From contig CM097886.1 of the NCBI GenBank assembly GCA_044892525.1, positions 43,524,001 through 43,588,000 on the forward strand: DNA of 64,000 bases, written 5' to 3'. The position numbers and the translations under genes were made by a program. Below, one piece after another: positions 32,631 through 34,702 of the stretch (position 1 is its first letter; the number at the start of each line of letters is the position of its first letter). Source of the stretch: Schmidtea polychroa. Lineage: Eukaryota. The notes below the pieces were generated by a model. The model was not told where the DNA came from and did not search any database. It worked only from the letters and a program-made list of their open reading frames with translations.

Positions 32631-34702
32631 ATGCAGAGCCATCCAATATCCAAATACCAAGGAAGACATAGCATTATACGTGCTACGACCTTACTAAAGG
32701 AAAAACTTATTTATAAAAACCTGGAGAAGCAGGTAATGGAGCAAAGCAGAAAAGGACAAAGGCACTGGTTTTACGGACATTGCTCAGGCATACCCAATAA
32801 TTTCAAATTTGACGAGGCCCCAAAGCGTCAAATGATTATTTCAAGAATTCCGGGCAAGCATAACGGCAGTATTAGGCTTACCGAAGTCATGCCTGAGTTT
32901 GGCAGACATAGTCTGACCAACCACCTGTTGATACACGCCATTAACAAACCATTTACGGTTTATGTTCCTGGCACCACAAACCCTATTTTGCTGCAAAAGC
33001 ATACAACCCTGGAAATCGAAAACGGGGATGGAAGGGAAAAGAACATCTCACTGTTATGTGAAGGAATAGATACCATCGTAGCAATGGAAATCCTGGAACC
33101 TCACAAAGAAACACAAACGAGATGGGTCAATGACCCAAATTGGATATACAATGTCAATGATAATGACATCAAAACGTTTAAGTCTTTCGTAAGACAGCGG
33201 TTGGACCCAAGACAAGAGGATAACCTCACCATCTTCGTAGCAGCCCACTACGCTACACTACGACAATTCCTAAAACCGGCAATTGTGGCCATTTCAATCT
33301 CGCATTTCAATGGCGATCTGATACTCAAGACATTACCAATCGCATGCGCATGGTATGACCGAGAAAGAAATAACCGGACAGTTCGACGAAGACTGTGCCG
33401 AAAGAATTAGGAAAATCTGCGATGGGAAAATCATCGTGGGATTGTTAGTAAAAGACCCATTGGAAGTAATCAGATTTCCAATGCAACGCGCACTCGGAAT
33501 CCGCGAGTTAGGCGCAGCTAAATGCCTCGAAAATAGGGACTTAAAGAAATGCAACGGGTATTACCGTTTGGCATATTTGGCAAAAGCAGTCACCGGTAAA
33601 GGCACATTAGTAAGAGGCACATCACTTCTCGGACCTTCAAACGGAGAATGATGTAACAACCATTAAGGAGATATACGACAATTTACGAGATATCTGGGTT
33701 GATGATATTTCACCAGACACCCGGAAAGAGGTGGTGTCTTCACAAATAAAGCAGATGGAACCCGGAACCTCAAGCATGCAGAAACCTTTAGCTATGGATA
33801 GTTATGTAAAAGAAAATATCCCCAGGTCAAAGTTGCTGAAAATAGTGGAAGAAGATTCCTTGTCGCCGCCAGCCATCTCAATTGCTGATGAAGACGACTA
33901 TGCCACTTGCGAGAGTGCAGACGATAACTGCCTCCAAGTCACCCTTACCAATGATGGTAGAGTGGTGAATTCGGCTAAAATGGAAACAGAAAAATCACCG
34001 CCAGCAGCAAAGCTAGTAAAACGGGTCACCAAGATCTTAAAAGAATTGGCCCCGTTGAGTGAACCTAAATAAGGAGCAGAAGGAGGAGCATTACCCCAAG
34101 CTGTAGCACCACTACTTAAGCTATAAGATTTAAAATTTAAAAAGAAAACATCAGAGAAACCCACCCAGAAAGAGGACAAGGAGAAAAATGTCCCTACCTC
34201 TACGAAAAGGAAAAAGGAGATTCCTAAGAGTACAAAAAAGAAAATGCCTAGGATATCCATCCAGGATGAGGATGACGATCTCTTAGAAACCCACTATCAG
34301 CCACCAGATCCTGCATTGACCAAGATATTGGCAACAAAGAGTGAACCCACGATTGCAGGAGAGCCTATTATCATGAAGGAAGGCGAGTTCGTCGGAAAGG
34401 GCAACTCAATCAAAATACGGGAAGATCTCGACAGAGAAGATCCTAGTTGGTGGCAGAGACCCGAAAGCAAATGGAAACCGCGTATCAAGGAATACGACGG
34501 AGGCCCAATCCATGAAGTAGCCGTATCCAATTTCCCCGATTACGGAGTATTGGAGGCTAATGAGGGCTCGTACATCATCTCCTCAATTGTGTACAAAGAG
34601 GTAAGTACACGGGAGACTTTGGTGGTCAGTTACAGACCAGACATAGTAGAACAAAGGATCCGTAACGAAAGTGCCAAGGTCATGAAAAGGAGAAAATACT
34701 AG
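32631..34702 (+). pseudogene. Element B 3' accessory ORF (reconstructed ~690 aa) with a DEDDh-exonuclease-like segment
   Basis: ORFs 32547-33410, 33355-33651, 33731-34072 and 34244-34702 join via two frameshifts (~33325, 33619) and two in-frame TAA codons (34070, 34124). A splice acceptor TTTCAG lies at 32628. Confidence 0.6.

Follow-up and report, generated by a model that had tools for sequence, protein, structure and literature searches.

A gypsy element with a third open reading frame

The window analysed here, a stretch of 64,000 nucleotides of Schmidtea polychroa DNA, holds on its plus strand element B, a gypsy LTR element of about 15 kb with the order gag-env-pol and an additional ORF3. 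Its LTRs form a direct repeat with approximate ends at 20974..21980 (5′ LTR) and 35054..35997 (3′ LTR, with a purine-rich tract upstream); in the direct-repeat comparison the two are 99.4% identical across one segment of 522 bp and 97.6% across another of 457 bp. Between them lie gag with CCHC zinc knuckles (22032..24644; PF00098, E 6e-9), an envelope of the Monjiviricetes fusion glycoprotein type in frame with an aspartic protease (24821..28465; PF24664, E 6e-86, and PF13975, E 6e-13), a protease-RT-RNase H region (28422..30006) and the integrase with a C-terminal extension (30165..32432; PF17921 and PF00665). Element B has the features that mark a Ty3/gypsy element of the GAG-ENV-POL kind, namely LTRs, gag, a fusion glycoprotein ahead of the protease and the order PR-RT-RH-IN, and the same gag-env-pol layout was found at three other loci. 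Weak Pfam matches such as ANC1_spectrin and PspC fell below the cut-off and were taken as chance.

The integrase extension (window 31500-32432) includes a hydrophobic, signal-like stretch, a part rich in beta structure and a helix that resembles a transmembrane segment, and is kept in a second family at 22-24% identity. It may be a second surface protein, and it may contain a fibronectin-III-like motif. A PDB profile search with the extension returned no match, and its structural model was of low confidence (pLDDT 47.5), too poor for a fold search.

ORF3 starts with an ATG at 32631 and ends at 34702. It comprises an N-terminal domain with a linker (32631..33179), a catalytically dead domain of the REX4/ISG20 DEDDh type (33180..33706) and a charged, low-complexity C-terminal part with a more conserved end (33707..34702). 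Just before the ATG, a T-rich tract with CAG at 32626-32628 resembles a splice acceptor (32608..32633, plus strand). The same 14 letters stand at this site in all 25 loci, of 30, in which the start peptide was found, and a similar T-tract-AG-ATG arrangement occurs in L034, L031 and L039, which represent three more distant families. This suggests, at the level of sequence, that splicing yields a subgenomic RNA for ORF3. Contigs of run X1, which is RNA only by guess, covered 29 of the 30 bins of the element and contained no joint among the 15 of 59 that were listed; they are uninformative on splicing.

Its LTRs mark the window copy as young, yet several of its genes are broken. The protease-RT-RNase H region contains a 300-bp tandem duplication (28151-28745) and more frame breaks, the exonuclease-like domain carries two frameshifting indels, and the C-terminal part of ORF3 has two premature in-frame stops, near 34070 and near 34125. 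This copy of ORF3 is itself a dead gene, and it adds nothing beyond what the ORF3 family shows. The 300-bp duplication is perfect and lies inside the protease-RT linker; it is either a recent event or an assembly artefact.

Elsewhere in the window, a fragment at 19586-19916 is inverted relative to element B, related to its LTR at 69% identity and probably an older LTR remnant. A second gypsy element occupies 7943-16528 on the minus strand, with 1234-bp LTRs that are 99.8% alike, a ubiquitin-like domain (PF00240) upstream of pol and an unexplained 472-codon frame at 14383-15801. A host cactin gene lies at 4699-6435 on the minus strand as a single open frame of 578 codons.

The two domains of ORF3

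ORF3 belongs to a multicopy family, with 40 DNA matches scored from 155 candidates and 152 protein matches in the genome from 1113 candidates, 150 of them scored. Among the 150 protein matches listed, 29 lie in open frames of 761-771 codons with no stop within the match. A preliminary description of the window, made from its letters, had read an exonuclease-like domain from three peptide pieces joined across two frameshifts. All three pieces are where it had put them, in three successive frames: the first ends the ORF at 32433-33410, the second is the ORF at 33322-33651 and the third starts at 33614. Alignment with six natural sister copies places one indel near 33327 and the other near 33600, at the very points where the frame changes had been proposed. 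The expectation that intact copies share one set of frames was also borne out. By a motif-based count, the domain stands in a single frame at 19 of the 29 sister loci (L002-L030). The bounds first given for the domain, 33219..33690, were rightly placed and slightly too narrow; it extends from about 33180 to about 33706. The description also recognized the exonuclease fold of ORF3 and missed the domain that precedes it in the same protein.

The assignment to the REX4/ISG20 type of DEDDh fold, which had likewise been proposed, is supported by profiles, the ESM Atlas, Foldseek and structural alignment. A profile built from 40 catalytically intact relatives, none of them from the window's family, was scored against every stop-to-stop piece of the window left unjoined, 1350 in all, and ranked the three pieces first, in collinear order (profile positions 3-58, E 0.16; 67-155, E 1.4e-14; 166-188, E 0.014), so their resemblance to these relatives goes beyond chance. 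A profile of 55 cellular-type REX4-like proteins matched the middle piece only (E 1.8e-5). Natural copies of the dead family scored 44-49 bits against this profile, compared with 7.2 for the best of 1000 shuffles. The Exo I, II and III segments of a DnaQ/RNase T-like fold follow one another in order in the ORF3 domain. Intact relatives have H-x4-D in ExoIII and not the Tyr that distinguishes DEDDy enzymes, and the best matches are DEDDh enzymes.

The RNase_T match predicted for natural copies was found in some resources and not in others. The Pfam RNase_T model gave no match on the unjoined window pieces and none for any of ten natural dead-family queries. A phmmer search of the PDB found nothing with the middle piece alone; with the natural open copy L023 it returned ISG20L2 alone (E 0.032), and a profile of six dead-family sequences also reached ISG20L2 (E 0.0058). 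In the ESM Atlas the same copy fell with RNase_T clusters (0.96, with 203 of 256 features in common), the family being carried by 59% of the members of the top cluster. A word-indexed homolog search with the dead domain left none of 453 candidates at E<=0.1, and with an intact sister protein gave three matches. The AlphaFold2 model of L023 (residues 1-373, pLDDT 76.3, pTM 0.61) was placed by Foldseek on ISG20L2 (E 5e-8, TM 0.77-0.80 by target) and ISG20 (E 1e-6), and by VIA-align on ISG20 (Z 17.0, rmsd 2.8, 161 residues aligned; next row Z 13.7). The alignment behind this model included intact relatives and may favour the fold; the phmmer, ESM Atlas and six-sequence profile results come from the dead family only.

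The N-terminal domain of ORF3 is predicted from the same model to be a double-stranded beta-helix of the 2OG-Fe(II)/AlkB shape. Residues 1-159 aligned with ALKBH6 (Z 11.3, rmsd 3.6, 141 aligned) and, at Z 10-11, with many AlkB and prolyl-hydroxylase chains, including P4H and PHD2. Retropepsin leads for this domain were set aside in view of the model's match to oxygenases of the beta-helix kind. With the N-domain, the best ESM Atlas value was 0.84, below the threshold for recognition. An IPN-x-x-K stretch is conserved across 45 sequences, and a Pro (45/45), an Asn (43/45), a His (40/45) and a Glu (39/45) are near-invariant. The conserved columns of these sequences contain no H-x-D/E...H iron triad; there is a single His, a single Glu and no HxD.

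These near-invariant residues, which are found in intact and dead versions alike, would fit a model in which the exonuclease-like domain only gives structural support to the beta-helix and the real activity, recognition of a ligand or a modified base, lies there. We consider this improbable. The N-domain is without the 2OG metal triad, the pTM of 0.61 means that the model shows no fixed packing, and the supposed support is better conserved than the domain it would serve (dN 0.06 against 0.13; see below).

Loss of the catalytic residues

Sequence comparison of 30 loci of the window's family indicates that four of the five catalytic residues are replaced throughout and that the last Asp is retained. 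The preliminary description had noted the loss of the ExoI D-x-E and of the ExoII acid, and the family shares both: no locus has D or E at the ExoI positions, where the Asp is replaced by A in 29 and S in one and the Glu by H in 29 and Q in one, and the ExoII acid position is L in 29 and P in one. The loss extends further, to the ExoIII His, which is L in 29 loci and H in one. The HH of 'HHFS' in that description is not this catalytic His; the true position follows slightly further on, and the residue there is Leu. In the window copy, the ExoI residues are Ala at 33240 and His at 33246, the ExoII acid position at 33457 is Pro (Leu in sister copies), the ExoIII His position at 33635 is Leu, and the ExoIII Asp at 33650 is kept.

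The ExoIII Asp (D in 30/30 loci) and an Asp one residue before the ExoII position (28/30) could be imagined to sustain a weak or altered catalysis, and both positions are also acidic in L031-L034, L039 and L040. We regard residual catalysis as distinctly improbable. Two-metal catalysis in DEDD enzymes needs the ExoI pair of acids, which is lost here together with the general-base His; in other dead lineages the ExoIII acid is gone as well, with M, R, Q or L in its place.

A PF00929 search of the genome gave 20 matches, of which one is L042, a gene that we take to be an ERI1-like host gene, and the other 19 are loci of another repeat family. This sister family has the motifs D-x-E, GHxLxNE and HSxxED, keeps all five catalytic residues, exceeds the Pfam RNase_T cut-off (27 and 25 bits against 24) and aligns with ORF3 at E about 1e-22, gapless at the motifs. 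Across its 19 loci, the two ExoI positions read D in all 17 loci that cover them and E in 16 of these 17; the ExoII acid position reads E in 15 of 16, and the Asp position of ExoIII reads D in all 14. For the His, which falls in a gap of the pairwise alignments, the multiple alignment has H in 7 of 7. In both loci checked, the intact ORF sits behind a gag-env-pol region. A distant family (L031-L033, L039 and L040; 32-38% identity) is dead at the same positions, its gag-env-pol context having been checked for L031.

Several loci show other arrangements. Locus L066:337-9999 belongs to a related dead-exonuclease family and has gag-env-pol in a single frame of more than 3200 codons. At L041:1245-5678 (minus strand) pol runs straight into ORF3 in a single frame of 1478 codons as the result of an internal deletion. 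The region of L033 and L039 (G000 C1:152.9-153.5 Mb; C2:115.36 Mb) contains several clustered copies of the 43%-identity family, some in opposite orientation 7-8 kb apart. In L033, sequence resembling env lies immediately ahead of ORF3, so some copies here may be rearranged or deleted.

A profile search of 1.84 billion representatives found 43 proteins at E<=1e-30. We built two quick trees. The first had 120 rows (95 intact, 25 dead) from 152 library proteins and 14 of our own loci, after the removal of rows with a gap in a catalytic column, of four proteins that were repeat-like or misaligned, and of seven near-copies. Of these rows, 63 are of the element type with a complete domain (40 intact, 23 dead), and the remaining 57 form one clade, which we take to be cellular REX4-like proteins; the labels element and cellular are our own reading, and cluster look-ups of ten library proteins returned no names. 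The second tree had 71 rows, with the catalytic columns and three long branches left out and 11 cellular-type rows kept. In it, element-type rows stand apart from those of the cellular type (SH-aLRT 99), and the dead rows are nested among intact ones, with a dead clade of eight diverged proteins that includes the window's family (SH-aLRT 97). A single loss of catalysis for all 20 dead rows has a support of 52 in this tree, and the first tree has three changes, counting two dead rows among the cellular-type proteins. Dead versions persist over many clusters under 50% identity, and the replacements at the active site differ between dead lineages and are mostly hydrophobic or uncharged. Three library proteins of 730-800 aa (P0052, P0078 and P0118) have four tandem REX4-like stretches with altered catalytic positions.

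The simplest history for these sequences would be one capture of an active REX4-like domain followed by at least one old loss of catalysis. The domain had been described as a captured RNase T-family module; its type is upheld, and what does not hold is a capture by element B of a domain already dead, because it belongs to an old element-type clade whose intact members are still present in the same genome.

Conservation and possible role of the dead domain

The dead domain is the most conserved part of ORF3. Between L031 and the two loci L033 and L039, its dN is 0.062-0.066, whereas the N-domain has 0.13 and the C-terminal part 0.20; the dN/dS of the dead domain is about 0.03, an approximate value as dS is near saturation (about 2). 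The four deepest pairs within the window's family give a dead-domain dN/dS of 0.04-0.13. Between subfamilies, these substitution rates indicate that the dead domain is under purifying selection. Six shallow pairs within the window's family (dS 0.04-0.06) have a dead-domain dN/dS of 0.36-1.23, on 5-7 synonymous changes, and in these pairs the N-domain is lower, at 0.05-0.26. The shallow values speak against uniform constraint, in the sense of relaxed or changing selection, or else reflect decay after insertion. Together with the broken window copy, the shallow values of up to 1.2 are what a neutrally decaying leftover would produce. That explanation is largely refuted by the 29 open frames of 761-771 codons among the 150 matches listed and by the deep-pair dN/dS of 0.03-0.13, and the persistence of dead versions across clusters of less than 50% identity also opposes it; we consider it very improbable.

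Dead DEDD folds that bind RNA are described for Exuperantia and Exd1 (10.1101/2025.08.03.668247) and for Maelstrom and EXD1 (PMC5408684). ORF3 resembles these proteins in keeping the DEDD fold without catalysis, the binding of RNA being theirs, and the EXO-like domain of Exuperantia aligns with the L023 model (Z 10.6, rmsd 3.4, 162 aligned). They differ from ORF3 in being genes of the host, two of which act in transposon silencing, whereas ORF3 stands on the transposon side and is of separate, REX4-like descent.

Because the catalytic residues are lost and the domain is conserved, and with the dead DEDD folds as precedent, we propose that the dead domain may act as a pseudo-nuclease that binds RNA to the benefit of the element, either protecting element RNA or sequestering small RNAs. 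We give this reading a probability of about 0.5. A role in RNA binding or anti-defence had been suggested in the preliminary description, and it is still an inference. An ancestor of this element group would have acquired a REX4-like nuclease of cellular origin and joined it to a beta-helix domain of the 2OG type. ORF3 would be translated from a spliced subgenomic RNA, and intact versions of the protein would trim RNA 3′ ends, and at least one lineage would have given up cutting and kept the surface that binds RNA ends or duplexes. The dead form could then cap the RNA of the element or accompany it, or else bind up small RNAs, and so protect the element against decay and silencing by the host.

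The conservation of the dead domain fits a scaffold or decoy role equally well. The fold would then bind protein and not RNA, either pairing with itself or occupying a host partner of REX4/ISG20-like or small-RNA-trimming nucleases. In favour of this, the domain is the best-conserved part of ORF3 after the loss of catalysis; hydrophobic or uncharged replacements that vary between lineages are what a filled pocket might look like. Against this, the domain has retained its basic character, with as many Lys and Arg residues over full-length domains in dead versions (28-31) as in intact ones (28-33), and the dead DEDD folds cited above bind RNA. We judge a protein-binding role somewhat unlikely, and the RNA-binding pseudo-nuclease remains our preferred reading.

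A broader picture, which we offer tentatively and think rather doubtful as a whole, is that of a large enveloped gypsy group with a two-domain accessory protein which, within one host, would be an active RNA trimmer in some families and a pseudo-nuclease kept by selection in others. In its dead form this protein could be a transposon counterpart of Maelstrom and Exd1, a suppressor that binds small RNAs or the ends of element RNA and blunts silencing of the piRNA type. Proteins directed against host RNA silencing or decay are known from few animal retrotransposons. Intact and dead versions in sister families of the same genome offer a natural comparison of whether cutting RNA or holding it brings an element the greater gain, and these families allow the change from enzyme to pseudo-enzyme to be watched.

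A DEDD exonuclease as the ORF3 of a retrotransposon is already known from bdelloid rotifers. The LTR retrotransposons Juno and Vesta and the Terminons carry a DEDDy-type ORF3, for which roles in RNA 3′-end processing or silencing have been proposed (PMC5408684). The group of element B shares with them a 3′-5′ exonuclease of the DEDD superfamily as ORF3 of gypsy LTR elements, and also a DEED variant of the motif. The rotifer proteins are RNase D-like DEDDy enzymes with intact catalytic residues that replace env (PMC5408684). Unlike them, the ORF3 described here is of the REX4/ISG20 DEDDh type, stands behind a 2OG-shaped domain in elements that also have env, and exists in intact and dead lineages. 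It follows cellular REX4, ISG20, ISG20L2 and SDN1 (PF00929) in fold and motif order, and these give the best structural and profile matches; it differs from cellular REX4/ISG20 in having four of five catalytic residues replaced, being borne by an element, carrying an added beta-helix domain and forming its own clade (SH-aLRT 99). In literature listings, the openings of abstracts and the text of PMC13524379 with its supplements, we found no description of the DEDDh fusion or its dead form; both are apparently undescribed.

The layout of element B has parallels in flatworms, drawn here from their published descriptions. The giant Burro gypsy elements of planarians have the order gag-env-pol (PMC6431247), and errantiviruses of the GAG-ENV-POL kind are known from Platyhelminthes (PMC13524379). 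Both have, like element B, a mononegavirus-like fusion glycoprotein env between gag and protease, and two listed flatworm elements span about 14.8 kb, as element B does. The word 'exonuclease' occurs 0 times in the text of PMC13524379 and its seven supplements as far as these were available, and in that of PMC6431247 for the rotifer Terminons only. The sister family with the intact nuclease resembles Burro (PMC6431247) in its ubiquitin-like domain and weak Bcl-2 matches. In the two loci of this family concerned, L062 and L064 (G000 C1:194868500-194878430; C2:10676600-10686589), the ubiquitin-like domain lies in gag of L062, and the weak Bcl-2 matches precede env in both.
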